Source: Deltaproteobacteria bacterium
GTDB lineage: Bacteria > Desulfobacterota > Desulfarculia > Adiutricales > Adiutricaceae
NCBI GenBank assembly: GCA_031281735.1
Contig: JAITEZ010000075.1
Span: 1-57,324, forward strand
Reading direction: 5' to 3'
Length of the DNA: 57,324 nucleotides
Below, piece after piece: positions 15,195 to 34,648 of the stretch. The position numbers were made by a program, and so were the translations under genes. The notes under the pieces are model-generated. The model did not search any database. It saw only the letters and a list, made by a program, of their open reading frames with translations, and was not told the DNA's origin. Every line of letters starts with the position of its first letter. Position 1 is the first letter of the stretch.

Positions 15195-15289
15195 AAAAGA
15201 AAATTATTTTTTAATTTAATATTTATATATATGTAATATAATATATTAAATATATATAATATTTTAAATATATATAAAATAATTATATA
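15195..15289. other. A/T island 1 (about 95 nt, two G and no C)
   Basis: Read directly from the sequence. Bounded on the left by CTGCAGA (15189-15195). Lies between the SGNH hydrolase gene and the DUF3798-like gene. Confidence 0.95.
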
Positions 15290-15866
15290 GCCATGCATTC
15301 TCTTGGCGGCATCAAATAACCTTCACTTCCCCGGGCGGACGCATCGCTCAGGCATCCTGGACGGGTGAGGGCGCCCGGCCCGGATGTCCCTCCGCTTCAC
15401 TGACAGGCCGCTAGGACGGCGGGCCTGAAGGAAAGGATCCGTCCGCGCGATCGGTGGCGGCGTTGCGCGGGCGGTGCCGCCCGAATCACCCGCGCGGGCG
15501 GCCGTCCCCGCCCCGGGTCAAGCGTGGCGGGGATCCGGGTTCTGAGCGGGAGGGCGGGCGCCTGGCCAAGGGGCGGCGCCGCGCCCGGGGCGGGGCATCC
15601 AGGTGGTAAAAGCCGCGCGGATGCTATAAAATGAAAGCTCCGGAACCGTGGCGTCCACCGCCCTACCGACCGGACGACCGTCTCGGGCCGCCCGGCGGCC
15701 CAATCTTTGCCATGACCGGCCGCGCCGGAGGCCGTCCGGAAGCCCCCTTGCCCGCCGCGCGGGCCGGGGGCCCCGCCCGGCGGCCGGGCCGGCCCCGCCG
15801 GGATCGTTGCGGCCCGGCGCCCGCCTTCTCTCCCATCGAGCTTTTTCCCTTCTATCGGGCCTTTCC

Positions 15867-18449
15867 ATGGAACCCAAGCCACGCACCTTCTCGCGGCTGC
15901 ATCTCGTCCTCGCGGTCGTCCTGGCCGTCTTCGCGGTCTCCCTGTGCGCATACCTCCTGACCGGCCGGCCCGATCCCGGCACCACGCCGCCGCCCGAGAT
16001 CATCCTGCGGGATCCCTCCTCCAGCGTGGTGGTCCTGGCCCTGGGGCCGCCCGACCTTTTCCCCGAGGAGTGGCGGGCGGCCGAGAGGCTCGCCGGGATC
16101 TACGGGTACTCCCGCGAGGGCGGGAGCATCCGCGTGGTGGAGATCCCCCCGGACTTCGAGGACGACCCTGAGAGGGCGGCGCGGCTCCTCACCGATCAGG
16201 GAGCCGATCTGGACGTGCGGGCCCTCGTCGTGGCGCCCGCCTTCCGCGGGAGCCTCGGGGCCTTCGCGCGGCTCAAGCTCTCCCGGCCGGACATTCTCCT
16301 GCTGGCCTCGGACAGCCGCGAGGATCCTGGACCCTTCAGCATGTATTCGGATCTCACCGTGAGCCCGGATTTCGTGCTCCGCCCCTTCTTCCTCGCGCTC
16401 TCGGCCAAGGAGCTCGGGGCCACGACCGCCCTGTACGTGGCGACGGAGATGGATCTCCTGAGCCCCGCGGCCGCCCGGATGCGGGCGGTGCTCAAGGCGG
16501 CGTCCGAGGATCTGGGGCTCCGCTTCGTGGAGATCCGGGCCGAGCCCGGCCTGGGCGAGGGCTCCCCGGGGTCTTCCGGGCGCGCCGGGGCCTGGGTGGC
16601 CGAGAGATGCGCGGGCTGGGTGGCCGAATACGGGCCCGAGGTGGCCTTCCACGCGCCCTCGGCGCCGCTCGCCCGGGCCTTGCTCAGGTGCGCCGCGACG
16701 GAGGGCGGCTATTTCCTGGAGGCCCCCCGGCCCTCGCCGTACGCCTCCCTCCCCGAGCTCGCGGGGCTCCCGCCCGGCGCCCCCGAGGCGGAAAGCCTCG
16801 ACTCGCGGGGCTTCACGGAACTCCTCTCCGAGCGGGCCCGGGAACTCCCCTTCCGGGGGCGCCTCGGAGTCTGGCCCGTCTCCTACGGCGCGGACGTGAC
16901 GGAGACCCTGGGAGGCCTCGCCGTCAAGGCCGCGGGGGGCGGGGCCACGGTCTCGGAGCAGGCCTTCGGCGGGACGCTCATGGCGCTCAATCCAGGCGGC
17001 GGCTGGCTGCGCGAGGATCTCCTAGACGCGGTCACCTCCCGGAAGGTCAGGAAGCACGTCCTGGTGTCGGCGGACGTGAGCGTCCTGGGCGGGCAGACCT
17101 TCTCCCACGACGAGCGGGCGGTCCCGGTCAAGTACCGCTCCGTCCATCCGGCCCCCGTCCCCTCCGCCCCCGGCGGCCCCCCCTTCCTGGTGGGCATCCT
17201 CACGGGGGACGGCGCCCAGGGCTCGGACGACCTGCTGGGCGCGCGGGAGTTCGAGCGGCTGTACGGCAAGGACTCCGACGGCGGCATGGTGCGGCTCGCC
17301 GTCTACCAGGGGGACACCTTCGAGGAGCAGATGCGCCGGGGTGTGGAGCTCCTGCTCGAGCTCGCCGCCGACCCCCTCGTCAAGGTCATCGTCGTCAACC
17401 AGGCCCTCCCCGGCACAGCCGAGGGCTTCCGCATGATCAAGGAGTTCCGCCAGGACATCGTCCTGCTGGCCATGGAGGTCCACGAATCCCCCGAGGTCAT
17501 CGCCCCGGCGGCCGATCTCTCCGTGGTCTCCGACTACATCGAGTCGGGCTACCTCATCGTCCGGGCTGCGAAGGAGCTGGGGGCGGAGGGCTTCGTCCAC
17601 ATCTCCTTCCCCAGGCACATGTCCTACGACACGACGCGGCGCCGACACGCCGTCATGCGCGCGGCGGCGGAGGATCTGGGGATCGCCTTCCACGACGAGA
17701 CCGCGCCGGATCCCGAGGAGAAGGGCGTGGGGAGCGAGTCGGCCCGGCGCTACATCGGCGAGGTCTTCCCCTCCTGGCTCGAGAGGTACGGGCGGCGCAC
17801 GGCCTTCTTCTCCACCAACGACGCCCACAACGTGGCCCTCGTGTCGGCCGTGGCCTTCGAGGGCGGGCTTTTCGTGCAGACCGACGTGCCCACCCCCATC
17901 CTGGGCTACCCCCAGGCCTTCGGCCTGGATCTCGGCTCCTACGGGAACCGCTGGGAGGACTTCCTGCGCGACCTCGACCTCAAGGCCCGCGAGGCGGGCG
18001 CCGCGGGCAGGATAGGCACCTGGGCGTACCCCCTGGGGTTCTGCGAGTCGGCGGGCGGGGCCGAGTTCGGCAGGCGGGTCGTCATGGGGGAGGCCCGCCT
18101 CGATGACATCCAGGCCCTCCTGGACTCGTTCTCCGAGTTTTCCCGCGGCGCCGCCTGGAGCGGGCGCTACCTGATCGACGGCTTCACCGGCAAGCCCCTG
18201 CGGAACTTCTTCCTGGTCCAGCAGGACACCTATATCCTCGGCAAGGGCTATCTGGGGCTCACCGAAATTGATGTGCCCGACAAGTACCATGTCCTGGGGA
18301 CCGGCCTCGGCGCCGCGACGGCCGATCTGCCCCTCCCTGACGACGCGGGGGAGCCGGGCGGGGACGCGGATCCCGCCTGGAAGGGCGGGGGGCCCGGAAG
18401 GCCAGGGGGATCGGAGGGTGGGCGGCCTGCCCCTGAAGCCGGGGACTGA
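15867..18449 (+). CDS. Tandem DUF3798 / type-I periplasmic-binding-protein-like protein with N-terminal membrane anchor
   Basis: Start at ATG 15867 (MEPKPRTFSRLHLVLAVVLAVFAVSLCAYLL). The C-terminal half carries motifs I recall as DUF3798 hallmarks (ISFPRHMSYDTTRRRH, APDPEEKGVG, RTAFFSTND). The N-terminal half is a divergent copy of the same fold (LYVATEMDLLSPAAARMRAVL..., EVAFHAPSAPLARALL). Confidence 0.7.
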   Translation: MEPKPRTFSRLHLVLAVVLAVFAVSLCAYLLTGRPDPGTTPPPEIILRDPSSSVVVLALGPPDLFPEEWRAAERLAGIYGYSREGGSIRVVEIPPDFEDDPERAARLLTDQGADLDVRALVVAPAFRGSLGAFARLKLSRPDILLLASDSREDPGPFSMYSDLTVSPDFVLRPFFLALSAKELGATTALYVATEMDLLSPAAARMRAVLKAASEDLGLRFVEIRAEPGLGEGSPGSSGRAGAWVAERCAGWVAEYGPEVAFHAPSAPLARALLRCAATEGGYFLEAPRPSPYASLPELAGLPPGAPEAESLDSRGFTELLSERARELPFRGRLGVWPVSYGADVTETLGGLAVKAAGGGATVSEQAFGGTLMALNPGGGWLREDLLDAVTSRKVRKHVLVSADVSVLGGQTFSHDERAVPVKYRSVHPAPVPSAPGGPPFLVGILTGDGAQGSDDLLGAREFERLYGKDSDGGMVRLAVYQGDTFEEQMRRGVELLLELAADPLVKVIVVNQALPGTAEGFRMIKEFRQDIVLLAMEVHESPEVIAPAADLSVVSDYIESGYLIVRAAKELGAEGFVHISFPRHMSYDTTRRRHAVMRAAAEDLGIAFHDETAPDPEEKGVGSESARRYIGEVFPSWLERYGRRTAFFSTNDAHNVALVSAVAFEGGLFVQTDVPTPILGYPQAFGLDLGSYGNRWEDFLRDLDLKAREAGAAGRIGTWAYPLGFCESAGGAEFGRRVVMGEARLDDIQALLDSFSEFSRGAAWSGRYLIDGFTGKPLRNFFLVQQDTYILGKGYLGLTEIDVPDKYHVLGTGLGAATADLPLPDDAGEPGGDADPAWKGGGPGRPGGSEGGRPAPEAGD

Positions 18450-18861
18450 GGGCTGCGCCCCGGCGCGGGGGGGGGCGGGAAGCGCGGGCGGCCGACTGCG
18501 GCGGGGAAGCCGCGGGCGGTGCGGGCCCCGGCCCCGCCCGCCTTCCGCGCGCCGCGGGGCTGGCGGGCGCGTCCTGGGCGGTGGGGTGTGGCGGGCGGTT
18601 CGAGCGGGTCCGATCACGGTGATGTCTAGCGGGGGGCGCTGGCCTTCCGGTTCCGGCCCGGGGCGGGTTTCCCCGTCCCGGTCGCGCTTTGCGGCGCTGG
18701 GCCCCGCTGGGCCCCCTGCGCCCACAGGCGCCGGGCGCAGTAGCCCGGCGCGGAAGGGTTTTATCCTACAGGTGGCCGGCTTGGCGGCTCTAACTGAACT
18801 ACACGGCAAGATCCGCGGCGGCCGCGCCGTCCCCGGCCTGTTCCGGGGCGCCTTCTCCGCG

Positions 18862-21800
18862 ATGAGGCCCACGCTCCCCCAGCTCCTGGTGGTGTGCGCG
18901 GCCTTCCTCACCCTGAGTCTCGTCTCGTATTTCTACGTCTCCAACATCATGAAGCGGCAGGTGGACCTCTACTCGGGCTCCGAGATGGAGGTGCACCGGA
19001 TCCGCATGAGGTCGCTCCTGAACGCCCACGAGTCGGCGCTGCTGCACGCGGCGGCGTCCGTGGCGTTCGAGTCCTCGCGCGGCGCGAGCCCCGAGGAGCT
19101 CCAGGAGCTCCTGCGGTCCCTTTCCCAGGTCTTCTCGACGCAGCCCGAGATGGAGGGGATCTTCGTCTCGGTATACGGCTACATCAGGGGCAACTACCTG
19201 GACGCGACGAGCTGGATACCGGGGGAGTTCTTCTACCCCGCCACGGCCCCCTGGCTGAGGGGTGCCCTCCTCACGAAGGGCATCTTCCACACCAGGCCCT
19301 ACATCGACCCCCGCACCGGCGACGCGGTGGCCGCCGTCTCGACCGTCGTCTACGACTCCGACGGCGGGCCCCTGGGCGTGCTCGCCATCGACTACTTCCT
19401 GAACCCGATAATCGACCGCGTGAGGAGCTACCGCATCGCCGAAAGCGGCTGGGGCTTCCTCCTGGACGACTCCTTCACCATCCTCACCTGCCCGGATCAG
19501 GCCTACATCGGGCGCAAGCTCTCCGAGTACCCCGGCTTCGGGCCCCTCGCCTCAGAGCTCATGGGGCAGGCGGGCGGGCCGAGATCCGATGCCGGCTACG
19601 CTCCCCAGCCCCAGCCCCAGGACGGGGAGGGGGCCGCCGCCTATACCCCCCCGCCGGCCGGGGGCGACCGTCCCGGCGGCCGGGGGGAGGGAGCGGGGGA
19701 CGCGCCTTCCCCTGCCGCCGGCGGCGCGGCCGCCCCTCCGGCCGGCGCCCCGGGCCGGGGGGAGCCCCCGCCCCGGCCTGCGGCAGGCCCCCCGGCGGAC
19801 GGGGCGCCCGGCGAGCAAGGGGCCCTGGGGTCCGGCGGGGTGCTGGTGAAGTCGCTGGAGCTGGCCGGCTCCAACAACATAGTGTTCTTCAGCACGCTCG
19901 AGAACGGCTGGCACATCGGGATCGTGTCGCCCTACCGGTACTACTACTCCGAGGTCTTCCGGCTGTTCCCGGTGATCTCGCTCCTGGGCGCGGCGCTGGC
20001 CCTCCTCGTCTGCGCGATACTCGTCCGCATGAGCCAGGCCAAGACGCGGAGCGAGGAGGAGTCGCTCCAGAAGTCCTCCTTCCTGGCCCGCATGAGCCAC
20101 GAGATCCGCACCCCCCTCAACGCGGTCCTGGGCATGTGCGAGCTGGCCCGCCGCAGCCTCGGCAAGCCCGAGGCGGCCGAGTACCTCGCGGGCATCCGCA
20201 GGGCGGGGGGGGATCTGCTCACCATCATCAACGACATCCTGGACTTCTCGCGGATCAGCGCCAGGAGCTCCGAGTTCAACGTGGCCCCCTACTCCACCTC
20301 CTCCATGCTCTGCGACGCCCTGGTCTTCCTCAAGATCCGCATGGAGGGCAACCACGTGGGCTTCAAGGCGGCCGCCTCCCCCTCGCTCCCCTCGCGCCTC
20401 TTGGGGGACGAGGTGCGGGTGCGACAGGTGCTCACCAACCTCCTGTCCAACGCCGCCAAGTACACGCGCCGCGGCTCCATCTCGCTCGACGTGGGCTGCA
20501 GCGAGGAGGCGCAGGGCAGGGTCCGGCTCTCCTTCCGCGTGGCGGACACGGGCATCGGCATCCGCCGCGAGGACATGGACTCGCTCTTCGGGGAGTTCGT
20601 GCGGCTCGAGCAGGGGGGGGTCAGGCACATCGAGGGGACGGGCCTGGGGCTGTCCATCACGCGGAGCCTGTGCCGCGCGATGGGGGGGGACGTCAGCGTC
20701 GAGAGCGAGTACGGCAAGGGATCGGTCTTCACGGCCGAGGTGGTGCAGGGGGTGGCGGACCCCACCCCCATGGGGTCGCTCGAGGAGGAGGCGCGCCCGG
20801 GCGAGGAGTGGTCCCCCGACAGGCCGGACGCGGCGCCCTTCACGGCGCCCGGCTTCCGGGTGCTCATCGTGGACGACATCGAGACCAACCTCCTGGTGGC
20901 CAAGGGCCTGCTCGAGCCCTACGGCATGGACGTCGAGGTCTCCCTGATCCCCAGCCAGGCGGTGGAGCTCTGCGAGTCCGTCCCCTTCGACCTGCTCTTC
21001 ATAGATCACATGATGCCCGAGATGGACGGGGCCCAGACCATGGAGCGCATCAGGGGCCTGGGCGAGCGCTGGAAGAGTGTCCCCATCGTGGTGCTCACTG
21101 CGGCCGTCATGGCCGGCATGAAGGAGATGTTCCTCTCCAAGGGATTCGACGCCTTCCTGGGCAAGCCCATCGTTTTCTCCGAGCTGGCCCTCATCCTCGA
21201 CCGCTTCGTCCCGCAGTCCCGCCGGGTCGCGCCCAGCGAGGCGAGGGCGGCGGGATCCTCCACGCGGGCGGGCGAGGGCATCTCCATCCAGGGCATCGAC
21301 GCCATCTCCGGCCTCAGGCGCATGGGCGGCAAGCGAGCGGACTACATCAAGGCCCTCACCGTCTTCCGCAGGGATCTCGAGGAAAGGAGCCAGGCCCTGG
21401 GCGCGGTGGAGCAGGGGGGGCTCGAGGCCTTCCGCATCCAGGTCCACGCCGTCAAGAGCGCCGCCGCCAACGTGGGGGCGCTGGGCCTCTCCGAGGAGGC
21501 GGCGCTCCTCGAGGAGGCGTCCTCCAGGGGCGATCTCGCCGGCGTGCGGACGCGGCTCCCCCGCCTGACCGCCCGCCTCGCGTCCATCACTGCGGCCATC
21601 GCGGGGGCCCTCCGGCGGGAGTCGGAGACCGCGGCCCCGCCGGCCCACGATCCCCCGCCAGCGGCGGGCCCGGCCCCCGCCCCCGCAGGTGCCCCGGCCG
21701 CCCCCGCGGGTACACCTGCCGCCCCCGCCGCCGGGGACTACGGCCGGAGCCCCGCGCTCGGCAACGGCGATGGGGCCCCCCTCCCCCCCGACGGCGGCCC

Positions 21801-22098
21801 CGCTGATCCCGGCGCTCCCGTAGCGGCGAAGCCGGTCGCGCAGGCGGGGGCCCCCGCGGGCGGCAACGGCGGGGGGCCGGGCGTGTTCCCGCGCCTCAAC
21901 GTGGAACGGGGCCTCCTGCTCGACCTGCGGCAGGCCCTCGCCAAACGGGACGTCCGCGAGATCGACCGCCTCCTGGAGGGCATCGGCTCCGCCGCGACCG
22001 ACCCCGGTACCAGGGAGGCGGTCGAGCAGATCTCGACGCGTGTCCTCATGGCCGACTACGACGAGGCCGAGTTCCTCGTCGCGAAGAGCATAGGCTGA
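18862..22098 (+). CDS. Hybrid sensor histidine kinase (TM, double-Cache-like sensor, TM, HisKA, HATPase_c, REC, Hpt, C-terminal helical domain)
   Basis: Start at ATG 18862 (MRPTLPQLLVVCAAFLTLSLV). H-box FLARMSHEIRTPLNAV, N-box LTNLLSNAAKYT, G-boxes DTGIGI and GTGLGLSI, REC VLIVDDIETN...DLLFIDHMMPEMDG, and Hpt VHAVKSAAANVGA. Confidence 0.9.
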   Translation: MRPTLPQLLVVCAAFLTLSLVSYFYVSNIMKRQVDLYSGSEMEVHRIRMRSLLNAHESALLHAAASVAFESSRGASPEELQELLRSLSQVFSTQPEMEGIFVSVYGYIRGNYLDATSWIPGEFFYPATAPWLRGALLTKGIFHTRPYIDPRTGDAVAAVSTVVYDSDGGPLGVLAIDYFLNPIIDRVRSYRIAESGWGFLLDDSFTILTCPDQAYIGRKLSEYPGFGPLASELMGQAGGPRSDAGYAPQPQPQDGEGAAAYTPPPAGGDRPGGRGEGAGDAPSPAAGGAAAPPAGAPGRGEPPPRPAAGPPADGAPGEQGALGSGGVLVKSLELAGSNNIVFFSTLENGWHIGIVSPYRYYYSEVFRLFPVISLLGAALALLVCAILVRMSQAKTRSEEESLQKSSFLARMSHEIRTPLNAVLGMCELARRSLGKPEAAEYLAGIRRAGGDLLTIINDILDFSRISARSSEFNVAPYSTSSMLCDALVFLKIRMEGNHVGFKAAASPSLPSRLLGDEVRVRQVLTNLLSNAAKYTRRGSISLDVGCSEEAQGRVRLSFRVADTGIGIRREDMDSLFGEFVRLEQGGVRHIEGTGLGLSITRSLCRAMGGDVSVESEYGKGSVFTAEVVQGVADPTPMGSLEEEARPGEEWSPDRPDAAPFTAPGFRVLIVDDIETNLLVAKGLLEPYGMDVEVSLIPSQAVELCESVPFDLLFIDHMMPEMDGAQTMERIRGLGERWKSVPIVVLTAAVMAGMKEMFLSKGFDAFLGKPIVFSELALILDRFVPQSRRVAPSEARAAGSSTRAGEGISIQGIDAISGLRRMGGKRADYIKALTVFRRDLEERSQALGAVEQGGLEAFRIQVHAVKSAAANVGALGLSEEAALLEEASSRGDLAGVRTRLPRLTARLASITAAIAGALRRESETAAPPAHDPPPAAGPAPAPAGAPAAPAGTPAAPAAGDYGRSPALGNGDGAPLPPDGGPADPGAPVAAKPVAQAGAPAGGNGGGPGVFPRLNVERGLLLDLRQALAKRDVREIDRLLEGIGSAATDPGTREAVEQISTRVLMADYDEAEFLVAKSIG

Positions 22099-22236
22099 CG
22101 CCGCCATGACGGCGGCGCTGCCGGGGGCCCGTCCCGCCCCCGGCCAACGGGCAAGGAGCCAGCAGACGATGCCTGACCTTCCCAAGCGATCCGGGGGGGC
22201 CCCGCCTTCCCGCCCGACGCGCCGGGGCTCCCCGTC

Positions 22237-23349
22237 ATGAGCGGCGACTGGTACAGCGAGGCCGAGGAGGCGGCGCCGGGCCGCCGGAAAGTCATGATAG
22301 TCGACGATGACGTGACGAACCTCATTTTCGCCAAGTCGGCGCTCTCCGAATCCTACGACGTCTTCACGGCGCCCTCGGCGGCCAAGATGTTCGAGATCCT
22401 CGCCCGCGTCCTGCCGGATCTCATCCTCCTGGACATCGCCATGCCGGAGGTAGACGGCTACCAGGCCCTCAGGAGGCTCAAGGCGGACTCGGTCGCGGCC
22501 GGGGTGCCCGTCATCTTCCTCACCGCCCTGAGCAACGCCCAGGCCGAGGTGGACGGGCTGTCGCTGGGCGCCGTCGACTACATAAACAAGCCCTTCGACC
22601 CGGCGCTCCTGCGCAAGCGGGTGGAGCTGCACCTGACCATGCAGGAGCAGAAGCTCCTCCTCGAGCGGCAGAAGGCCGAGCTCCTTTACTTCAACCGCAA
22701 CCTCATGGGCCTGGTGGAGGACAAGACCTCGCGGCTGGTGGAGCTCCAGGGCGCCATCCTCTCCACCGTGGCGGATCTCGTCGAGTGCCGGGACGACTTC
22801 ACCGGCGGCCACGTGAACCGCACCAAGAAGTACCTGCGGCTGCTCGCGGACGCCCTCGTCGGCTCGGGCCTCTACTCCGACCAGACGAGGGCCTGGGACA
22901 TAGAGCTTCTCTGCCGCTCCTCCGAGCTCCACGACGTGGGGAAGATCTCCATCTCCGACTCCATCCTCCTCAAGAAGGGCAGGCTCACCCCCCAGGAGTT
23001 CGAGGCGATCAAGCTCCACACGACCTTCGGCGTGCTGATAGTCGACCGCATCGCGAGTGCCACCAACGAGCAGGACTACCTCAGGCACGCCAGGATCTTC
23101 GCGGGGACTCACCACGAGAAGTGGGACGGCACTGGCTACCCAGCGGGCCTCGCGGGCGCGGACATCCCGCTGGAGGGCAGGCTCCTGGCCATCTGCGACG
23201 TCTACGACGCCCTGATCTCCCAGCGCCCGTACAAGGAGCCGATGAGCCACGAGCAGGCGGTGGGCATCATCATGGAGGGGCGCAGCACGCACTTCGACCC
23301 CGCCATCATCGACGTGTTCGAGTCGGTGAGCGGGTCGTTCAAGCCCTGA
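22237..23349 (+). CDS. Response regulator with HD-GYP phosphodiesterase output domain (RpfG-like)
   Basis: REC motifs (VMIVDDDVTN, LILLDIAMPEVDG, INKPF). HD-GYP motifs (HVNRTKKY, ELHDVGKISI, HHEKWDGTGYPAGL, AICDVYDAL). Confidence 0.9.
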   Translation: MSGDWYSEAEEAAPGRRKVMIVDDDVTNLIFAKSALSESYDVFTAPSAAKMFEILARVLPDLILLDIAMPEVDGYQALRRLKADSVAAGVPVIFLTALSNAQAEVDGLSLGAVDYINKPFDPALLRKRVELHLTMQEQKLLLERQKAELLYFNRNLMGLVEDKTSRLVELQGAILSTVADLVECRDDFTGGHVNRTKKYLRLLADALVGSGLYSDQTRAWDIELLCRSSELHDVGKISISDSILLKKGRLTPQEFEAIKLHTTFGVLIVDRIASATNEQDYLRHARIFAGTHHEKWDGTGYPAGLAGADIPLEGRLLAICDVYDALISQRPYKEPMSHEQAVGIIMEGRSTHFDPAIIDVFESVSGSFKP

Positions 23350-23410
23350 GCCCCGCCGGGCCTCCCCCCGCGGCCGGCGCGGAGCCCGGATCCCGCCGGG
23401 CGGGGCCCGG

Positions 23411-25029: not shown

Positions 25030-25099
25030 ATAAATATAAAATATATAAATATTTATAAAATAATTATAAATTATTAATAAAATAAAATATTAAAAAAAA
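25030..25099. other. A/T island 2 (70 nt with no G or C)
   Basis: Read directly from the sequence. Bounded on the left by CTGCAGA (25024-25030). Lies in the divergent pfk / cydA intergenic region. Confidence 0.95.
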
Positions 25100-25591
25100 C
25101 AAGGAAAGCTTGTGGAACCGATGTCTTTCCCCAGTCATCATCACCCTTTCCGGTGGAGCTCCGCCCGCCCTGCCTTCCGCCGGGGCGGCAGGCCGCGCCG
25201 GGGAGGGCCGTCCGGTCGGCGCGCGGGGGGGGGCAGGCGGGCGAGCGGATCCGCGGCGGTGCGGCGCGGACGCGGCGGGTAGCCGGCGTATCGCGCGGGC
25301 CCGCGGCGCCGGCCGCGGGCCGTTTCCCGAGACTCCGCCCGCCGCCGGGTCAGACGGGTCGAGGCGCAACCGGCGAGCCGGGCGGCGCGGGAGGGAAGGG
25401 CGCCCCGCGCATTAGCAGTGCGGGAGGGAAGGTTCCCCACAATCAGTTGGAATTGCTTGAAAAACGCCTTCCTGCGAGCCTGGGTTTTACCGCGCGGGGA
25501 AGCGCCAGCGGTCGGCCGCGGGGGGCGGTCTTTCCCCGGAAGCCAAGCGTTGACGGGTAATTGGGGAGGGGAAGGGGTCCCACATAATTAA

Positions 25592-25620
25592 TTGACCGGC
25601 CGCTTGTCTGACGGTATAAT
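25592..25620 (+). promoter_or_regulatory. Sigma70-type promoter for cydAB
   Basis: TTGACC (25592-25597), a 17-nt spacer, then TATAAT (25615-25620), about 200 nt upstream of the cydA ATG. Confidence 0.55.
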
Positions 25621-25723
25621 CAAGGTATCCAGGAACCATTGCGTGCCCGGGCGGCCCCCGCCCGGCGGAGACTTTCACGGCGGCGGGGGCGGACGGAACG
25701 AAGACCGATATTCTTTTCCGCAT

Positions 25724-25771
25724 CACTACACGTGCAGACGGCATATCCACTACGCGTGCAGACGGCATATC
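25724..25771 (+). repeat. Tandem 24-nt direct repeat (2 copies, 1 mismatch) in the cydA leader
   Basis: CACTACACGTGCAGACGGCATATC (25724-25747) is followed immediately by CACTACGCGTGCAGACGGCATATC (25748-25771). Confidence 0.95.
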
Positions 25772-25819
25772 CGGGGAATATGTCAGCCTCATCACCTTTC
25801 CGTGCAACGGAGGACCCAG

Positions 25820-27145
25820 ATGGACCCTATCATTCTCTCCAGGCTGCAGTTCGCCCTGGCCACGATCGTCCATTTCCTGTACGTTCCCCTCACAATCGGC
25901 CTGAGCTTCTACATCGCCATCATGGAGACCCGCTACGTCCGGACGGGCGATGAGATGTACAAGACCCAGGCCAAGTTCTGGGGAAAGATCTTTCTCATCA
26001 ACTTCGTGCTCGGCGTCGTGACCGGCATAGCCCTCGAGTTCCAGTTCGGCACCAACTGGGCCATCTACTCGAAATACGTGGGCGACATCTTCGGCTCCCT
26101 GCTGGCGATCGAGGCCACCATGGCCTTCTTCCTCGAGTCCACCTTCATCGCGGTATGGGCCTTCGGCTGGGACAGGGTCTCCAAGAAGACGCACCTCGCC
26201 GCCATTTGGCTCGTGGCCTTCGCCGGCACCATCTCTGCGCTGTGGATCCTCCTGGCCAACGGCTTCATGCAGCACCCGGTGGGCTACGAGATCAAGGACG
26301 GGGTCGCGCGCCTCTCCTCCTTCTGGGCGGTGCTGACCAACCCCTACGGCTGGCTCATGTACTTCCACACCGTGTGCGGGGCCTTCATACTCACCTCCTT
26401 CCTCGTGATGGGCGTCTCGGCCTGGCACCTCTACTTCAACCAGAGCAAGGAGTTCTTCCTCGCCTCCTTCAAGCTGGCCTCGACCCTGGCCGTCATCTTC
26501 ACCCTGGCCTCCTTCGTCTTCGGCCACCAGCTGGGCCAGGCCACCAACAGGTACCAGCCCGCCAAGATGGCGGCCATGGAGGCGGTCTGGGACACCGAGC
26601 CGGACACCCCCATGTACCTCCTGACGCTCCCCAAGTTCACCAACGAGCCCGGCAACCTGATCCAGGCGTTGCCGGTGCCGGGGGCGCTGAGCTTCCTCGC
26701 CACCAACTCCTTCCACAGCACCATCAAGGGCCTGAACGACTTCCCGGCTGACGAGCGGCCCCTGGTCTGGCCGGTTTTCCTGTCCTTCAGGCTCATGATC
26801 ACGCTGGGCACCGCCTTCATCGTCATCGCCATCATCTCGGCAATAATCAGCAAGATGGTGGCCTCCCTGGGGTGGGGGCTGTGGGTGTACATCCTCTTGA
26901 TCCCGCTCCCCTACCTAACCCTGCAGCTGGGCTGGCTGGTGACGGAGCTGGGCAGGCAGCCGTGGATCGTGTACGGCATGCTGCGGACGGCCGACGCGGG
27001 GAGCCCGCCGGTCGACTGGTACCAGGTCCTCATCACGCTCCTCGCGATGGCGGCCATCTACGGGCTCATCTCGGTCTCCGGCTTCGTCCTCATGATCAAG
27101 GCGGCGATCAAGGGCCCGGACAAGCTTGACGAGCACTACGCCTAA
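25820..27145 (+). CDS. cydA: Cytochrome bd ubiquinol/menaquinol oxidase subunit I
   Basis: Start at ATG 25820 after GGAGG (MDPIILSRLQFALATIVHFLYVPLTIGL). Typical CydA motifs include GWLVTELGRQPWIVYGMLRT. Length is 441 aa, consistent with the short Q-loop type. Confidence 0.92.
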   Translation: MDPIILSRLQFALATIVHFLYVPLTIGLSFYIAIMETRYVRTGDEMYKTQAKFWGKIFLINFVLGVVTGIALEFQFGTNWAIYSKYVGDIFGSLLAIEATMAFFLESTFIAVWAFGWDRVSKKTHLAAIWLVAFAGTISALWILLANGFMQHPVGYEIKDGVARLSSFWAVLTNPYGWLMYFHTVCGAFILTSFLVMGVSAWHLYFNQSKEFFLASFKLASTLAVIFTLASFVFGHQLGQATNRYQPAKMAAMEAVWDTEPDTPMYLLTLPKFTNEPGNLIQALPVPGALSFLATNSFHSTIKGLNDFPADERPLVWPVFLSFRLMITLGTAFIVIAIISAIISKMVASLGWGLWVYILLIPLPYLTLQLGWLVTELGRQPWIVYGMLRTADAGSPPVDWYQVLITLLAMAAIYGLISVSGFVLMIKAAIKGPDKLDEHYA

Positions 27146-27169
27146 AAGGCCCAAGAAGGAGGGACTATC

Positions 27170-28213
27170 ATGGAATTCGAATGGCTGCAGGTTGTCTGGT
27201 TCGTCCTCTGGGGGGTCCTCTGGGGCGTCTATTTCCTTCTCGACGGCTTCGACTTCGGCGTCTCCATGCTCCTGCCGGTTCTGGGCGCGGCCAGCGAGCG
27301 CGAGCGCACGGCCATGTACAAGGCCACCGGCCCCTTCTGGGACGGCAACGAGGTCTGGCTCATCACCGCCGGCGGCGTGACCTTCGCCGCCTTCCCGCTG
27401 GCCTACGCCGTCCTGTTCTCCAGCCTCTACACGGCGCTCCTGATCCTGCTGTTCTGCCTCATCCTGAGGGGCGTGACCTTCGAGCTCAGGTTCCAGTGGG
27501 ACAACCCCTGGTACCGGCTCACCTGCGACGGCCTGGGGGTGCTGGCCAGCTTCGTGGCCCCGCTCCTCCTGGGGGTCGCCTTCTCCAACCTCTTCCGCGG
27601 ACTCCCGCTCCAGTTCGACCCGGCCCGGGACTTCTTCATGTACCAGGGGAACATCCTGAACCTCCTGCACCCGTACTGCCTGCTGGGCGGGGTGCTCTTC
27701 GTTGTGATGTTCGTCTACCACGGGGCGCTGTACCTGGCCTGGAGGGTCGACGGGGATCTGCGGAAGAAGTCCTTCTACATGGCCAAGCTCGTCTACCCCC
27801 TCTTCCTTCTCCTCTTCCTCCTCTACGTGGCGCTCACCTTCTTCTGGACCGACCACTTCATCGAGCCCTATCTGGCCTCGCCGTTCCTCTTCGCGATCCC
27901 CGTGCTGTGCGCCGTCCTCTTCCTGAGCTCGGGCTACAACACCTACGTCAAGAACTCCGCTGGCCGCGCGGCCCTGGCCTCCTGCGGCGGGATCCTCACC
28001 TTCACCCTGTGCGGCGTCATGGGCATGTTCCCGAACCTCATCCCCTCGCGGCTGGACTTCGCGAACTCGAGCCTGAACCTCGCCAACGCCTCCTCTTCCA
28101 ACCTGACCCTGGGCATCATGCTGGCCGTGGCCGTGGTCTTCGTGCCGACGGTCATCGGCTACCAGATCTGGGCGCACAGGAAGCTTTCCTGGACCGTCAA
28201 GGCCGACTATTAG
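27170..28213 (+). CDS. cydB: Cytochrome bd oxidase subunit II
   Basis: ORF 27170..28213 with AAGGAGG upstream. CydB-like N-terminus (WFVLWGVLWGVYFLLDGFDFGVSML...WDGNEVWLI). Confidence 0.92.
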   Translation: MEFEWLQVVWFVLWGVLWGVYFLLDGFDFGVSMLLPVLGAASERERTAMYKATGPFWDGNEVWLITAGGVTFAAFPLAYAVLFSSLYTALLILLFCLILRGVTFELRFQWDNPWYRLTCDGLGVLASFVAPLLLGVAFSNLFRGLPLQFDPARDFFMYQGNILNLLHPYCLLGGVLFVVMFVYHGALYLAWRVDGDLRKKSFYMAKLVYPLFLLLFLLYVALTFFWTDHFIEPYLASPFLFAIPVLCAVLFLSSGYNTYVKNSAGRAALASCGGILTFTLCGVMGMFPNLIPSRLDFANSSLNLANASSSNLTLGIMLAVAVVFVPTVIGYQIWAHRKLSWTVKADY

Positions 28214-28271
28214 CCGCCGGATAAGCCGGCCGACCCCTGCCGCCCGCAGGCAGGGGGATCCGGCCGACACT

Positions 28272-28307
28272 GGAAAGGCCCCGGGATCCGCGTCCCGGGG
28301 CCTTTCC
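28272..28307. terminator. Perfect 15-bp inverted repeat hairpin 60 nt after the cydB stop (no T tail)
   Basis: GGAAAGGCCCCGGGA (28272-28286), a 6-nt loop, then TCCCGGGGCCTTTCC (28293-28307). Confidence 0.45.
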
Positions 28308-30445
28308 CGTCACCGGCCGCCTGGCGGCCGCCGTCCCCCGCCGGGAGGCGAAACTCCCGGCACCCGGGGGCGGGCCGGCCCTCCCGCGGCGGGAGATGGC
28401 GGCGGAAGCCTGACCGGGGGTGCCGCCGGCCGGAAACATGACGCTGGTTCCGCGCCCCGTCCGGCCATTCCTGGAAGCCGGGACGCGGCGGGAACCCGCC
28501 CCGCGGGCGACCGGGAACGGAGGCGGGTTGCCCCGTCCGCGACGCCCGCGGCGGGGGAGGGGTCGCCAAGCGTGCGCCGCGGCGGTGGGCCGGCACGCCC
28601 GGGGAAGGACAGGTATGCCCGGGGACTGCCAGGGCAGGATGGGTCTCCCCCAGGCGGTGCCCGGCGAGCCCGGCGCGGAACCGGCTGATGCGGCGCCGGT
28701 TGCCCTCCGGCCGGGCCACGCGCCCCCTGCGCGTCCGGGCCGCCGTGCGGCCAGGCCCGGAGGGGGCGTTTCCGGCGTCCCGGCGACGCATAAGGCGTCC
28801 CCCTGCGGCAGGATAGCCGGCCAGGGCGCGGTCTGCCGCTGGCGTGGGGGCCGGGGGCAGACGGCTTCCCGGTCTTCCCTGCTCAGCCGCGCGGCGGTCC
28901 CCGGCATTTCGGGATCCTCCATCCGCGGCTCAGGCCGTTTTTGCCCTCGGCCAGTCCCGCTTTCCCGCCACAAGCCCGTGAGTCATGGACGCGGGGGTGG
29001 CGGATAGATGGAAAACCGGGAAGGAGGGAGAAAGCGGACCGCGCTGCGCCGGATCGCCGGATCACCGGATCGCCAGACGGGCGGGTCGCCCGCGAGCCGA
29101 TGCGGGCAGCCTGCGGGTCGACATCCTCCCTGCCCTGAAGTGCTGGGAGTCCATACCGGGCACGGGGCATCGGACCGGGTCTCCCCGCGGGGCGCCCGGA
29201 TCACGGGCGGGACTCGGGTGCCCTGGCCTCCCCGGGCATCGAGGCGGCCTGCCCGGCCGCCAGGACGTTCTTCGCGCCGTCCGTCCCGGCATCGTTCCTG
29301 CGGCCGCGTCCCAGGCATCTGGAACCGGCCCGCGTCCCGCGGCCGCCTTCCCCGCATGACCGCAGCCGGGACATCCCCGGCCGGCGCCGCAGGGATCGAC
29401 CCGGACAGGCCTGCCTCCCCGGAAGGACGGCTTCCTTCCGGGGGCCGCCGGGAACGCGACCCGGCCCTGACGCGGGATCGACCGGCCGGGCCAGCTCCTG
29501 GCCGCCACGCGTGGCGTCCGGATCCCTCCGGCGACCCCAGCCGGGGACGGGCGGATCCCTCGCCTTCAGATCCTCGACCGCCGCGACGGCGCGGCTCTTG
29601 CCGATCGCGGCCGGGGCCTTGTGATGGAAATCACTGCGGACGCCGGAAACCCTGCGGCCGGCGACGGCCGTCCTGCGGCGGTGCCTACGCAATCTCCCCC
29701 CCATTGGGATCCGGGCCCTCCCCTTCATCCCCGGATGAGCCTTCTCGGCCCTCTTTCTCGCGGGCGGCATCTCCAGGCCGCGACCCTCCGGGCACGCCTT
29801 TCCTTTCGAGGACCCGGCCTGTCCCGGGCCGGAGCCACGGGAGGGAGGCCGGGGGACGCGCCGCCGCCGGCGGCGGTGAGATGCGCGATGCCCATCTCCA
29901 GGCCGATGGCATCCCCCCGCAACCCCCCCTGTGCGGGCCGGGGTCAGGGACGTCCCCCTCGGACTGAATCGAGGCGCGGGACCGTCCGCCCCGACCGGGA
30001 CGGCGACGTCCCGGAGCGCGCCTTCCGCAGGCCTGGAGTACCGGCACTCCAGCCAGCCGGGAGGGGGTAGCCTGAGGCGCTGGCGGGCCCCGTCCAGCAC
30101 TGTCCGGCCCTGGATACCGGAGGGTCGCCCCGGCCTTTCCACCTGGACACGGGGAGCCCGCCCCGGCCCTCCCGCCGCTTCCTCTCGGCCCGATCCGGGC
30201 CGAACATGGCCTGCAGCAGGGCCCGGGAAGGGGGCCTGTCTCAGGAATCCCGGGCCGGGTTCTCCTTCAGCGTGGGAATCGGGTCGCTCAACCGGTTACC
30301 GGCCGGGAGCTTCCCCTCGTCATCCAGGCATCTCCTCGGCACGGCCGCGACATCGCTGCAGACGGATCTCCGGCTTCCGGCGGCTCTGCCCATGGGTTCC
30401 GGGACTCCCGGTCGGGATTCCATGTTTTATATTCATCTCCTCTCC

Positions 30446-30507
30446 TTAATAGTATTTTAATTATTTTATCAAATATAAATAATATAAATTTTTTTATATT
30501 ATATTTT
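30446..30507. other. A/T island 3 (62 nt, one G and one C)
   Basis: Read directly from the sequence. Lies inside the ORF-less region between cydB and the transposase gene. Confidence 0.95.
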
Positions 30508-30836
30508 CTCTGGAATCCAGCTCCCGACGGCTCAGATCCCCGTCCTGAAGGATGGGGTTTCGCGCCGTCCCCACACGATCAGGCTCGGCGGCGGGACGTC
30601 CTCCATGCCCTGACGAGCGCGGACCGGAGGGCGCGGGAGGCACTGCCCGCCCGGAGCCTGCGGCCGCCCCTGGGATACGCAAGAAAAAGCGGAAGCCCCC
30701 GGGGGACGCCCGGAAGCCTCCGCTTCTGGAGTTGAGAGCCAGGGAACGGTGGGGAGGCGGGCAGGGTTCGCCCTGCGGGCCCATGCCTCTCTCCCGGCCG
30801 GGCGGGGGGGCGCGCCCTGGCGGACGGCGGGGGGGA

Positions 30837-32063
30837 TCAGGAGGCCCGGGAGGTCATGGAGCTGAAGATCGGATCTATCTTCACGGCGCCCAGATCCGGG
30901 GCCAGCGTGTAGTTCCACTCTCCGTGGAACTCCGAGGGATAGATGGCGATGGACTTGCCGTCGTCCCCGTCGCCCGAGGGCGCGTAGAAACGGCCGTGAT
31001 CCAGGGTGAGGCCCAGGGCCATGGTGCGGACCTGGGCCCCGGCGCTGACGAGGCGCACGGTTATCTCGGAGTCGCGCCGCGGCTCGTTGGCGAACGAGGT
31101 GGAGAAGAAGGAGAAGAGGCGCTGGGCGTTGGCGTTCCAGCGGCTGGTCCCCGGGGGGTAGCGGCAGAACTCCACCGGGAGCCCCGCCAGGGTGGCGAGC
31201 TTCTGGAGGCCCGCCTTCCAGAGGGTGTTGCGTCTCAGGCCCCCCGCGTTATCGGCGGTGACCAGGATTGAGGAGGCCTGGGGGAAGAGCTCCCGGCCCT
31301 CCACGGCCCACCAGCCGCACAGGGAGTCGCAGGTGAAGGCCACGGCCTCCCTGGAGGTGGCGATGCAGGCCGACTCGCGGGCGAGCTTCTGGTCGTAGAT
31401 GCCGCGGAGGTGGATCCCGGGCTCCAGACGGTCCCTGGGGGAGGAGCCCTCGCGGGGGCGGGGCTGCTCGTGGGCGGAAGGATCCTGCGAGGCGTCCTTG
31501 CGGCGTGTCTCCACCGCCAGGATCGGGAGGCCGTTGGCCAGGCAGTTGCAGGCCCGGCGGGAGATGTGCCGGAACTGGGCGTCCCGGTCGGGGTGGATGC
31601 TCCCCTCCTCGGTCTTCCTGGTGCCCATGAGGTTGTAGCCGTTCTTGCGGAGGATCTGGGCCACCTTCTCGTGGCTGATCCGGTGGTGGGAGGCCGTGAG
31701 CTCCTGGGCGAGGCAACGGGTGCTCTTGCAGGTCCAGATGAGGGGCGGGTCAGTCTCCCCGCGCACGGTCTCCCGCAGGAGATCCTCCAGGGAGTTCCAG
31801 ATGCCTGGATCCGCGCGTTCGACCCGGGGCCTACCGGCCCCGGCCCGGCGGGTCTTTCCGGGCTCGAGGGGGGCCTCGTCGAGCTCCTTGATCCCCTTCG
31901 TGATGGTGACCCGGGAGAGGCCGCAGGCGCGGCTGACCATGGAGATGCCGCGGCGGCCGATGCGCTTGGCCTCGCCGGCGGCGACGAGCCTGCGCTCCCG
32001 CTCGCCCAGGTGCGGCCAGACGTTGGAGAACATCTTGCTGAGGGCGTTTTCTGTGTCGGTCAT
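30837..32063 (-). mobile_element. ISAzo13-family (Rhodopirellula-type DDE) transposase ORF, possibly catalytically degenerate
   Basis: 408-aa ORF with family-typical blocks (HPDRDAQFRHI, ILVTADNAGG, YPPGTSRWN, FHGEWNYTLAP). I did not identify terminal inverted repeats. Confidence 0.75.
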
Positions 32064-32221
32064 GGCGTTATGGATCCTGCGGGCTCTGCTGGACGCGCGG
32101 CGTCCGCTGGGGCCCGGTAGTCTGCGCCGGGTTCCCGCTGGGCGGGGCGTGTCCGCTCTCCGGGGTTCCGGGGCCTGCAGCCCCGGCCGGCGGTGAGGTG
32201 CTGGCCATTGGCAAAGCTAAT

Positions 32222-32249
32222 GATATATGGGGAGGGTTCGGCTTGTCAA
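32222..32249 (-). promoter_or_regulatory. Candidate sigma70-type promoter upstream of the transposase gene
   Basis: On the minus strand: TTGACA (32249-32244), a 16-nt spacer, then TATATC (32227-32222). Confidence 0.3.
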
Positions 32250-32276
32250 AAGGCCGTCCCCCGCCCTTCCCGGTGT

Positions 32277-32304
32277 GCCGGGGCGGGCGGGGGCCCCCGC
32301 CCCG
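32277..32304 (-). terminator. 10-bp GC hairpin downstream of the flavodoxin gene
   Basis: CCGGGGCGGG (32277-32286) pairs with CCCGCCCCGG (32295-32304). A short T run follows further downstream on the minus strand. Confidence 0.3.
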
Positions 32305-32359
32305 GGAGGCAGGCCGCGGTCAGGCCTGGCCCGGCGCGGGGAGGGCGGGCCACGGGGGG

Positions 32360-32806
32360 CTAGATGGCGGCGATTACCGCGTCGCCCCAGGTCTTGATGT
32401 CGCCCTTGGCTCCTTCGGGGTCGCCGTTGATCTTGAGCTTGCCGCCGACCACCGTGGAGCCGAGCTCGTTTAGCTTGTCGGTGATGGCGTCCACCGCCCC
32501 GCAGAAGAACTTGTAATCCTCGTCCCCGGTGCCGAAGACAGCCGTCTTGACACCTTTGGCGCCGATCTTGCTAAAGTTCTCGAAGAGGGGGATGAAGTCC
32601 TCCTGGAGCTCGATCTCGTCCTCCCCCCAGGTGGAGCAGCCGAAGAGGACGAGATCCTTGCCGGAGCAGAGGCCGTCCGCAGAGACGTCGGCGGCCTTGG
32701 CCTTGGAGACCGAGTGGCCGGCGGCCTTGATCTGCGCCTCCAGCTGGTTGGCCACCCATTCGGTGTTGCCGGTGGTGGAACCGTAAACGATGTAGACAGT
32801 CGCCAT
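32360..32806 (-). CDS. fld: Flavodoxin (short-chain, Desulfovibrio vulgaris-like, 148 aa)
   Basis: Start at ATG 32806 with AAGGAG 9 nt upstream. MATVYIVYGSTTGNTEWVA, LVLFGCSTWGEDEIELQEDFIPLF and FGTGDEDYKFFCGAVDAI closely parallel my recollection of the D. vulgaris flavodoxin sequence. Confidence 0.93.
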   Translation of the reverse strand: MATVYIVYGSTTGNTEWVANQLEAQIKAAGHSVSKAKAADVSADGLCSGKDLVLFGCSTWGEDEIELQEDFIPLFENFSKIGAKGVKTAVFGTGDEDYKFFCGAVDAITDKLNELGSTVVGGKLKINGDPEGAKGDIKTWGDAVIAAI

Positions 32807-32908
32807 ATCAGAAGACTCCTTTAGTGACGTTTGCAGGGTCCTGGCCGGCACCAGGCCGCCGCTCCCGCGGCGAGGGCGCCCCCTGTGGCTCTTTGCCTGT
32901 GTATCAGG

Positions 32909-32937
32909 ATTTTAATCTAACTGATTCTCAGTTGCAA
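32909..32937 (-). promoter_or_regulatory. Sigma70-type promoter for flavodoxin
   Basis: On the minus strand: TTGCAA (32937-32932), a 17-nt spacer, then TAAAAT (32914-32909), about 100 nt upstream of the ATG. Confidence 0.5.
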
Positions 32938-33210
32938 TAGAGAACTTCCCCCGGCCCGGAGGCCCTGTCCTTGCGGTTTCCAGTGAGATATCCGGATGTT
33001 GCGATGCAGGGGTGGCCATGGGCGGGGCCGGAGGGAATGTCCCCGGAAGGTGAATCCTGGGAAGGCCGGGGAAGGGGCCGGCCGGGGGGGATTGCGAGCG
33101 GTGTGCCGTGAGCCCGCCGCCGGGGGCGGCGTGAGGCCGCAACCCCTGACCTGACAGGGGTGTCGGCGGCAGGTGGCCAGGGCCGCTGGCGCCCCTGTTT
33201 AGACCGCCTC

Positions 33211-33240
33211 CGGGGGGAGGGCCGACCCCCGTGTTTTTTT
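33211..33240 (+). terminator. Orphan intrinsic terminator on the + strand (hairpin plus T7)
   Basis: CGGGGG (33211-33216) pairs with CCCCCG (33226-33231), then TG and TTTTTTT (33234-33240). No + strand CDS lies upstream. Confidence 0.55.
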
Positions 33241-33311
33241 GCCGGGCCCTTTCACGGGAGGAAGCCCGAACTGGAAACCCGGATGTGGAGAGCTCGAAGC
33301 AGTGGGCAGAC

Positions 33312-33430
33312 AATAATATTAATTTATATTATATATAATAATTATAATTATTATATAAAAAAAATAGTATAATTTTTATAATAAAATTATAAATAATAAT
33401 AAATAAGATTAAATTTAAGAAAAAATGAAA
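33312..33430. other. A/T island 4 (119 nt, four G and no C)
   Basis: Read directly from the sequence. Bounded on the left by GGCAGAC (33305-33311). Lies between the flavodoxin gene and the nuo operon. Confidence 0.95.
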
Positions 33431-34618: not shown

Positions 34619-34648
34619 TTGACAGTATTTCCGTTTATGTCGTAAAGT
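34619..34648 (+). promoter_or_regulatory. Sigma70-type promoter for the nuo operon
   Basis: TTGACA (34619-34624), an 18-nt spacer, then TAAAGT (34643-34648), about 155 nt upstream of the nuoA ATG. Confidence 0.5.

Follow-up and report, generated by a model that had tools for sequence, protein, structure and literature searches.

Lineage-specific, near-pure A/T tracts in long spacers of a GC-rich deltaproteobacterial contig and their possible self-maintenance

Local DNA rich in adenine and thymine (A/T) is known from several systems. Stress-induced duplex destabilization (SIDD) sites and related promoter-proximal DNA are AT-rich without being A/T-only and usually coincide with working promoters. 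Xenogeneic-silencer islands, bound by Lsr2 in Actinobacteria or by MvaT in Pseudomonas, are kilobase-scale, gene-bearing, horizontally acquired and moderately AT-rich. The left ends of insertion sequences (IS) of the IS200/IS605 type combine conserved sequence with a specific hairpin, and a conserved flank without target duplication or terminal inverted repeat is typical of this group. The AT isochores of fungi, generated by repeat-induced point mutation (RIP), keep the purine/pyrimidine pattern of the mutated repeat, and poly(dA:dT) of eukaryotic promoters is homopolymeric and nucleosome-excluding. Here, four A/T islands were analyzed in contig JAITEZ010000075.1 of a Deltaproteobacteria bacterium (GCA_031281735.1), the 57,324 nt of which, referred to as the window, have a GC content of 68.6%. 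The islands are real and far beyond chance, representing lineage-specific, non-coding, non-repetitive and random-like A/T-only tracts. No description of such tracts was found in the literature searched.

A preliminary description of this DNA had reported four near-pure A/T islands, and composition counts as well as a GC scan confirmed them at the following places:

15195-15289, no strand: island 1, 95 nt with 2 G and 0 C (2% GC), between the terminator of the GDSL hydrolase gene and the operon for a DUF3798 protein, a histidine kinase (HK) and a response regulator (RR)
25030-25099, no strand: island 2, 70 nt with 0 G/C, in the divergent spacer between the phosphofructokinase (PFK) gene and cydA, about 250 nt upstream of the PFK start
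30446-30507, minus strand: island 3, 62 nt with 1 G and 1 C (3% GC), its low-coordinate end overlapping the first codons of a decayed tnpB gene
33312-33430, no strand: island 4, 119 nt with 4 G and 0 C (3% GC), in the divergent flavodoxin/nuo spacer

Screening of the window for 50-nt windows of at most 20% GC returned these islands, one weaker patch (55843-55894) and nothing else. The GC histogram of 40-nt windows is bimodal, featuring 174 windows with 0-1 G/C and a main mode at 65-70%, and the near-empty valley between the two modes is made only of the eight island edges. The transitions, earlier called knife-edged, are sharp but not absolute, since mean flank GC amounts to 50-55% within 30 nt, 65% at 31-60 nt and 77% beyond 80 nt, and GC-depressed shoulders of 60-80 nt were observed on both sides of the islands. 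According to nearest-neighbor energies, the 60-bp duplex free energy (dG37) within the islands is -48 to -52 kcal/mol (island 1: -48.1), compared to a window mean of -95.4 kcal/mol (standard deviation 7.0); the next weakest duplexes, namely the AT patch at 55843-55894 and recognizable promoter regions, reach -66 to -78 kcal/mol per 60 bp. The islands are the least stable duplex DNA of the region by a wide margin. In this respect, and in their intergenic location between terminators and promoters, they resemble SIDD sites, whereas the working promoters of this locus are found at other places and exceed them in stability by 15-30 kcal/mol per 60 bp.

Pairwise scores of the islands, among themselves and against a longer A/T run on a second contig (L166, described below), were no better than those of shuffled A/T sequence. 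This dissimilarity argues against copies of a mobile element and speaks against the earlier suggestion that the islands are remnants of a repeat family. Folding was likewise no better than that of shuffles (z -0.9 to -1.7), including a 10-bp A/T hairpin in island 3 at 30479-30502 (fold z-score only -1.46). No 10-11-nt helical period was detected in the islands, and their A/T alternation is 0.52-0.62. Curved-DNA and hairpin readings were rejected on account of missing phasing and missing significant folding. A dispersed repeat family (repetitive extragenic palindromes, miniature inverted-repeat or palindrome-associated transposable elements) was rejected as well, since no alignable copies and no significant folding were found and the flanks are alike only in one edge motif of two islands. 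Definition by composition without sequence conservation recalls eukaryotic poly(dA:dT), but the tracts described here are mixed A/T and bacterial. A significant internal duplication is present only in island 1, where an 18-nt tandem duplication (15236-15281) scored 21 compared to a null of 12.3 +/- 1.9; its copies differ by an A/T transversion.

The edge motif is a palindrome that was located at two islands:

15188-15195, no strand: palindrome TCTGCAGA, left edge of island 1
25023-25030, no strand: palindrome TCTGCAGA, left edge of island 2

The whole window contains these two copies only, both exactly at island edges, and no copy was found in 177 kb of relatives. A composition-based estimate puts the chance of such a shared edge 8-mer at about 1e-4, by which islands 1 and 2 share a motif that is to be regarded as non-random. 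The shared left boundary proposed previously therefore stands for these two islands and fails for the other two edges, because the supposed matches GGCAGAC (island 4) and CCAGAG (outer edge of island 3) have only CAGA in common, with a register slip of one base. CAGA itself is found at the same edge in each of the four islands, 0-1 nt outside the tract. Flank similarity beyond the TCTGCAGA pair was not significant, and the right-flank motif claimed for islands 2 and 4 did not withstand testing, free or anchored (p about 0.14-0.38).

In order to place the islands, related loci were compared. The closest genomes are termite-gut bins assigned to 'Deltaproteobacteria' (CydA 88-90%, PFK 83-87% identity), followed by the more distant Candidatus Adiutrix and strain Smac51 (about 70% identity). 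The PFK of the window is a singleton in the protein collection, and a scan of Joint Genome Institute (JGI) metagenomes with it gave a best identity of 72% and none closer. Look-ups of the flavodoxin of the window and of P0121, a protein described below, returned no identical protein on record. Gene order is kept in relatives as GDSL hydrolase - DUF3798 - HK - RR - PFK / cydAB ... transposase-like gene - flavodoxin, in syntenic loci ranging from 43% (L171) and 47% GC (L161) up to 67-68% (L162, L163, L004).

Pure A/T windows (at most 1 G/C in 40 nt) were counted 174 times in the window and 277 times on L166, and none occurred in the other fetched loci of at least 50% GC (1.4 Mb, masked N runs set aside); apparent cases in L014, L059 and L025 turned out to be such N runs. 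Conservation in related genomes, a check put forward with the preliminary description, was not observed, as the sampled syntenic relatives have no pure tract. Those of 43-47% GC instead contain AT patches of about 20% GC. 'Proto-islands' with near-pure cores of 30-35 nt were detected upstream of the flavodoxin gene in L002 (21222-21292) and upstream of the PFK gene in L163 (737-796), that is, in relatives at 65-67% GC and at positions comparable to islands 4 and 2, respectively. The relatives keep the same operons and proximal promoters without pure A/T tracts. When spacers were aligned with those of relatives, only promoters aligned, and neither homology nor empty sites could be demonstrated; tblastx among the gaps and against relatives yielded compositional noise only. 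The island-bearing spacers differ among relatives, in which they hold IS110, ISAzo13-like and DDE_3 transposase genes, CAP-domain genes or an AAA-ATPase/PDDEXK gene. The spacers with the islands are unusually long and dispensable, and contain or border on transposase genes or IS relics, here or in relatives.

L166 represents a 5.3-kb termite-gut metagenome contig (JGI 3300042606) that is unplaced in any genome. Its positions 1-684, at the contig start, form an A/T run of 326 A, 321 T and 37 G+C (5% GC) with a length of at least 684 nt; outside the run, the contig has about 71% GC by arithmetic. Furthermore, L166 carries the C-terminal half of a paralogous tnpB relic (P0122), which the run joins at about codon 236. 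Bimodal composition, sharp AT domains and the association with dead mobile elements are reminiscent of fungal AT isochores. RIP-like transition hypermutation was nevertheless rejected for this run, since its purine/pyrimidine alignment to the 5' half of tnpB scored 138 compared to a shuffle null of 142 +/- 8, whereas a homologous positive control reached 400 versus 112 +/- 8 (the gapped test is decisive, fixed diagonals being underpowered). Unlike a RIP product, the run thus bears no such trace of the tnpB half that it replaced, and we know of no RIP-like system in bacteria. Within the first 100 nt of the L166 tnpB beside the run, 13 sites have A/T on L166 and G/C in the window (12 transitions), compared to 3 sites of the reverse kind (binomial p 0.011); farther from the run, the corresponding differences are 39 versus 27.

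Behind island 3, and again near the end of the window, decayed tnpB genes were identified:

29118-30460, minus strand: decayed tnpB-only IS of the IS200/IS605 family with multiple frameshifts, its start codon position inside island 3
54844-55791, minus strand: second decayed tnpB, 5'-truncated (positions 134-368 of the family model introduced below)

In a tblastn search, one frame of 29204-30295 (minus strand) matched 207 plasmid records, nearly all of those listed being TnpB by annotation, and two annotated TnpBs aligned within the window to 29231-29656 (tblastn, 31-33% identity, E 4e-7 and 2e-6). A database search with the tnpB frame led to P0121 (311 aa, from a termite-gut bin, NCBI locus tag LBG06_07110) and to P0122, and a search with P0121 to two intact TnpBs (30% and 28% identity to P0121). 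A family hidden Markov model (HMM) was built from these and run on all six-frame pieces of the window. Matches were obtained only at 29065-30426 (model positions 21-393, several frames, E 4.5e-26) and at 54844-55791. The P0121 N-terminus MILGKGYRYKTSKPDRES matches KILLRRGDEYKTWNPDRES of the window, read from 30460, which places the old tnpB start codon inside the end of island 3. Island 3 forms the upstream end of this dead tnpB of the IS605 family, whose 3' end was placed at about 29118, where 79% nucleotide identity with L166 stops. Pfam searches of all long stop-free frames of 28214-30460 gave nothing at E<=1, the relic being seen only by tblastn and the family HMM.

With a TnpB coding region present in a decayed, frameshifted copy, island 3 together with 29118-30460 falls into the class of tnpB-only IS of the IS200/IS605 family. 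Assignment of islands 1, 2 and 4 to such elements was rejected, as no remnant of TnpB or TnpA was found behind them; the family HMM is silent beside these three islands, and no tnpA was detected in the window. The idea that every island heads a dead tnpB was accordingly dropped. A VRRYP motif after island 4 is weak (p about 0.013) and followed by nothing, and an apparent match of the right flanks of islands 2 and 4 to the 3' end of the relic failed on alignment. Like the left ends of IS200/IS605 elements, island 3 lies upstream of and overlaps a tnpB start, the outer CAGA flank is conserved and target duplications or inverted repeats are absent; unlike them, the tracts are dissimilar, vary about tenfold in length and in three of four cases have no tnpB behind them.

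The weaker AT patch at 55843-55894 (21% GC) takes the place of the missing N-terminal region of the second relic. The three tnpB relics meet A/T DNA at different points, namely codon 1, about codon 130 and about codon 236, and it is unlikely that all three touch A/T DNA at their 5' sides by chance. In the two intact distant family members, the upstream DNA is ordinary and GC-rich. The second relic is followed by 1.4 kb of ORF-poor DNA (ORF, open reading frame) of lower GC content (59%) at the contig end (54844-57324), which may be another dead mobile element. Moreover, the ISAzo13-type DDE transposase gene at 30837-32063 (minus strand) is found in the same place beside the flavodoxin gene in L001, L002, L004 and L161; having host-like codon GC and a near-consensus promoter, it appears to be a fixed or domesticated gene and not a mobile one.

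The stretches beside the islands and the promoters of the neighboring genes are as follows:

14846-15187, no strand: GC-rich spacer left of island 1, 78% GC, with a terminator-like hairpin (15148-15175) at its end
25100-25591, no strand: ORF-less stretch from island 2 to the cydA promoter, 72% GC, up to 86% locally
28306-29117, no strand: rest of the stretch behind island 3, 0.8 kb, 78% GC, without periodicity or homologue
33431-34618, no strand: ORF-less stretch from island 4 to the nuo promoter, 68% GC, without periodicity, TnpB signal or Rfam match
25592-25620, plus strand: cydA promoter, TTGACC-17-TATAAT
34619-34648, plus strand: nuo promoter, TTGACA-18-TAAAGT
24886-24858, minus strand: PFK promoter, TTGCCT-17-TAAAAT
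32937-32909, minus strand: flavodoxin promoter, TTGCAA-17-TAAAAT
32249-32220, minus strand: promoter of the transposase-like gene, TTGACA-18-TATCAT

The absence of credible ORFs from the neighboring stretches was corroborated, since GC content does not vary periodically with codon position in them, in contrast to genes, in which codon positions differ by a range of 0.5-0.6; these stretches are truly non-coding. Each gene neighboring the islands has its own near-consensus promoter, in agreement with the earlier statement that the islands are not the proximal promoters of cydAB and nuo. An oriented architecture common to all islands, leading from island through leader to operon, had also been proposed and could not be upheld: the 2.2-kb ORF-less stretch behind island 3 consists of the 1.35-kb dead tnpB element, which is directed away from the island, and of 0.8-0.9 kb of unassigned DNA; it is not a cydAB leader, and relatives manage the same operons with proximal promoters and without tracts.

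Comparison of the cydA promoter with that of the relative L080 (TTGACC-ATTATTTCTTTAAAGAA-TATAAT, compared to TTGACC-GGCCGCTTGTCTGACGG-TATAAT in the window) revealed that the hexamers are kept while the spacer is filled with G/C in the window. GC pressure hence reaches single unconstrained positions, and promoter function alone does not keep 60-119 consecutive positions A/T. Promoter-like hexamer pairs within islands 1, 3 and 4 reach only 9/12 matches, and island 2 has none. The pair in island 3 (TTTATA-17-AATAAT) is weak and directed into tnpB. In tracts without G/C, the best -35 match is 4/6 and an extended -10 is impossible; this composition argues against selection for promoter strength as such. 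The cydA leader contains a direct repeat of 24 nt, CACTACACGTGCAGACGGCATATC (2 copies, 96% match, 25724-25772), which is located downstream of the promoter and ahead of the point where homology with relatives sets in, and which may serve for the binding of a regulator. At 33213-33239 (plus strand), about 80 nt before island 4, a hairpin with a T7 run resembles a terminator, although no plus-strand gene lies upstream of it; it may terminate a small transcript that is not annotated, or represent a relic.

The gene map of the window is based on third-position GC (about 0.9-0.98 in real genes) and Pfam. In its left part, rpoB, rpoC, a SPOR/OmpA gene, an AI-2E transporter gene and the GDSL hydrolase gene precede island 1. 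Genes for the DUF3798 protein, a hybrid histidine kinase, an RR-HD protein and PFK (minus strand) lie between islands 1 and 2, and island 2 is followed by cydA, cydB and then the 2.2 kb up to island 3. The ISAzo13-like DDE transposase and flavodoxin genes, both on the minus strand, separate islands 3 and 4, and after island 4 and a further 1.2 kb come the nuo operon and a PilY1-like giant gene. The rpoB frame (428-5194, stop to stop) is unusually long, comprising about 1,590 codons, and large insertions separate its conserved domains.

Coding DNA of the window has 68% GC compared to 71% in non-coding DNA (islands excluded), the latter reaching 80-86% locally. The spacers 14846-15187, 24782-25022, 28306-29117 and 46998-47870 exceed coding DNA with 77-78% GC and locally 86%. 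Non-coding DNA makes up about 19% of the window, a share suggestive of numerous decayed genes. Long GC-rich intergenic gaps are present in a second high-GC relative as well, since L162 has gaps of about 1.1 kb (3448-4538) and 0.8 kb (7981-8760) between called genes within its DUF3798-HK-RR operon. The PFKs of L161 and L171 are 81-82% identical to that of the window, yet these whole loci have 43-47% GC versus 69%, a very large shift of base composition inside one termite-gut clade with conserved gene order.

Among further known classes, a replication origin or DNA unwinding element was rejected because four tracts occur in 18 kb and the annotated neighbors, nuoA and nuoD included, comprise no replication genes (initiator boxes were not searched for). 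A horizontally acquired genomic island was rejected as well, the tracts being gene-free and the window containing no tRNA. The same applies to known RNA families: Rfam gave zero matches at gathering score in the whole window, and at E<=5 only chance-level matches in 14800-34800.

Purity of the tracts under a GC pressure that fills promoter spacers needs very strong selection at each site, or youth, or a local reversal of the substitution bias. Selection could act if a chromosome so rich in GC depends on sites that melt easily or nucleate proteins. Supercoil sinks or insulators between operons, nucleation of an H-NS/Lsr2-like silencer, and distal UP-like or alternative promoters are candidate roles. 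The location in spacers that separate a terminator from the following promoter, or two divergent genes, the extreme duplex instability, the conservation of composition alone, the proto-islands at comparable positions in two relatives and the promoter-like hexamer pairs are in line with such structural elements. Local AT-richness on a GC-rich background, with composition alone being relevant, is also shared with silencer-bound islands; the tracts differ from the latter in being 62-119 nt long (at least 684 nt on L166), gene-free and 95-100% A/T. We nevertheless consider selected elements somewhat unlikely. Relatives run the same operons from proximal promoters without tracts, -35 matches are poor and extended -10 motifs are precluded, the L166 run abuts a pseudogene, and phasing as a sign of designed curvature is missing. 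Moreover, nearly every single G/C would have to be deleterious to account for 0-3% GC along 62-119 nt and for about 5% along the 684 nt or more on L166. In the case of a mobile origin, an island would either provide the A/T-rich left end, promoter included, of an element (or derivative) of the IS200/IS605 type that had inserted 3' of a CAGA-like site, or serve such elements as a preferred landing pad, the GC-rich stretch beside it being the decayed body. Such an origin would account for the overlap of island 3 with the tnpB start, where MILGKGYRYKTSKPDRES matches KILLRRGDEYKTWNPDRES. It would also explain the A/T run joined to the independent paralogous relic on L166, the AT patch at the truncated 5' side of the second relic, CAGA at four edges with TCTGCAGA at two of them, and the abundance of transposase genes (IS110, ISAzo13-like, DDE_3) in the spacers of relatives. 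This origin is unlikely, considering that the HMM which recovers the first relic at E 4.5e-26 finds no TnpB beside islands 1, 2 and 4, and that tracts of 62 to at least 684 nt sharing no sequence are not copies of one left end. Furthermore, the intact family members have GC-rich upstream DNA, the relics meet A/T DNA at three different codons, and tnpA is missing from the window.

Youth of the tracts would be given if A/T-only DNA had been inserted recently, as untemplated filler at repaired breaks or by capture from an extremely AT-rich source, and had not yet been enriched in GC. Unique, random-like sequences that are absent from the other fetched loci, the closest relatives included, would be expected in this case. 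The L166 run shows no homology to the replaced half of tnpB, even in purine/pyrimidine space, and the palindrome common to two edges could be a cleavage or recognition site. This scenario is quite improbable, however: we know of no bacterial process that makes 60-700 nt of mixed A/T DNA, and shoulders on both sides as well as the AT-ward skew in the adjoining pseudogene are unexpected for a clean recent insertion, for which target duplications and matching right-edge motifs are also lacking and to which the proto-islands in relatives do not conform. An artefact of assembly or sequencing is highly improbable. The window is apparently a metagenome-derived singleton contig, Illumina libraries cover A/T-only DNA poorly and the L166 run sits at a contig end. 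Against this stand the four islands, which differ in sequence, are non-repetitive and all fall below a read length assumed to be about 150 nt, and a similar run on an independent contig; in addition, the genes flanking islands 1 and 2 and the gap of island 3 keep the order of relatives, although for island 4 only the flavodoxin side is shared.

We tentatively favor local bias reversal, and thus propose, as a possible rather than a probable account, that the islands are lineage-specific, self-maintaining A/T tracts in dispensable, IS-ridden spacers, where local AT-biased substitution keeps their purity and any melting or promoter-like role is incidental. This preference rests on the shoulders, the transition-rich AT-ward skew of the pseudogene, the proto-islands, the duplication in island 1 and the restriction to the two GC-richest sequences sampled, as pure tracts are limited to the window (69% GC) and L166 (about 71% GC). 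It is also supported by the bimodal composition with nothing between the modes, by the fact that only composition is kept (no conservation, likeness, phasing or hairpin excess), by the extreme duplex instability and by the cydA hexamers kept around a GC-filled spacer. The clade would have moved from about 45% to about 70% GC, whereby G/C came to occupy unconstrained sites, even promoter spacers. Seeds of AT-rich DNA, for instance former promoters, terminators or IS ends, may then have become the sole places of opening in a negatively supercoiled GC-rich chromosome. DNA that is often unpaired would shed its remaining G:C pairs by transitions (cytosine deamination) until pure A/T is reached. A pure tract could subsequently scramble by A<->T changes, expand by local duplication and lower GC content over the adjoining 50-100 nt. 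Binding of RNA polymerase and of nucleoid proteins that seek AT-rich DNA would be expected as a by-product, together with weak transcription, probably in both directions, into adjoining dead DNA; island 3 probably drove tnpB by such incidental promoter activity. We infer that the tracts are compositional domains and not regulators of neighboring operons, because they are absent where relatives keep the operons and promoters, adjoin pseudogenes and lack the G/C required for a good -35.

Several points weigh against self-maintenance. To our knowledge, a mechanism of this kind has never been demonstrated in bacteria. The near/far contrast on L166 is not significant (Fisher p 0.15), and its substitutions are unpolarized without an outgroup. 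TCTGCAGA at two edges is unexplained under all readings, homology of the islands to AT patches of relatives is not demonstrable because the spacers are unalignable, and failure of the GC-raising force inside the tracts is an assumption. Furthermore, all data originate from one contig and one 5.3-kb metagenome contig.

In its widest form, the proposal comprises two stable states of base composition, in which unpaired A/T tracts purify, persist and creep into their neighbors, dead transposons included, as G:C>A:T change outpaces the GC-raising force, resulting in a physics-driven bacterial analogue of fungal AT isochores, or else untemplated A/T DNA inserted at breaks; in this breadth it is rather doubtful. 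Since long tracts may break assemblies, as the position of the L166 run at a contig end illustrates, they may be under-counted. A/T tracts are probably under-assembled, and contig breaks in GC-rich metagenome bins may go back to them unnoticed. If the tracts are selected, they point to a class of bacterial chromosome elements that are specified solely by composition, for example as supercoil sinks or as anchors of nucleoid proteins. If they are self-maintaining, they represent a natural read-out of the effect of local melting on mutation and would show what drives extreme GC content, a long-standing question, in a clade that ranges from 43 to 69% GC with conserved gene order.

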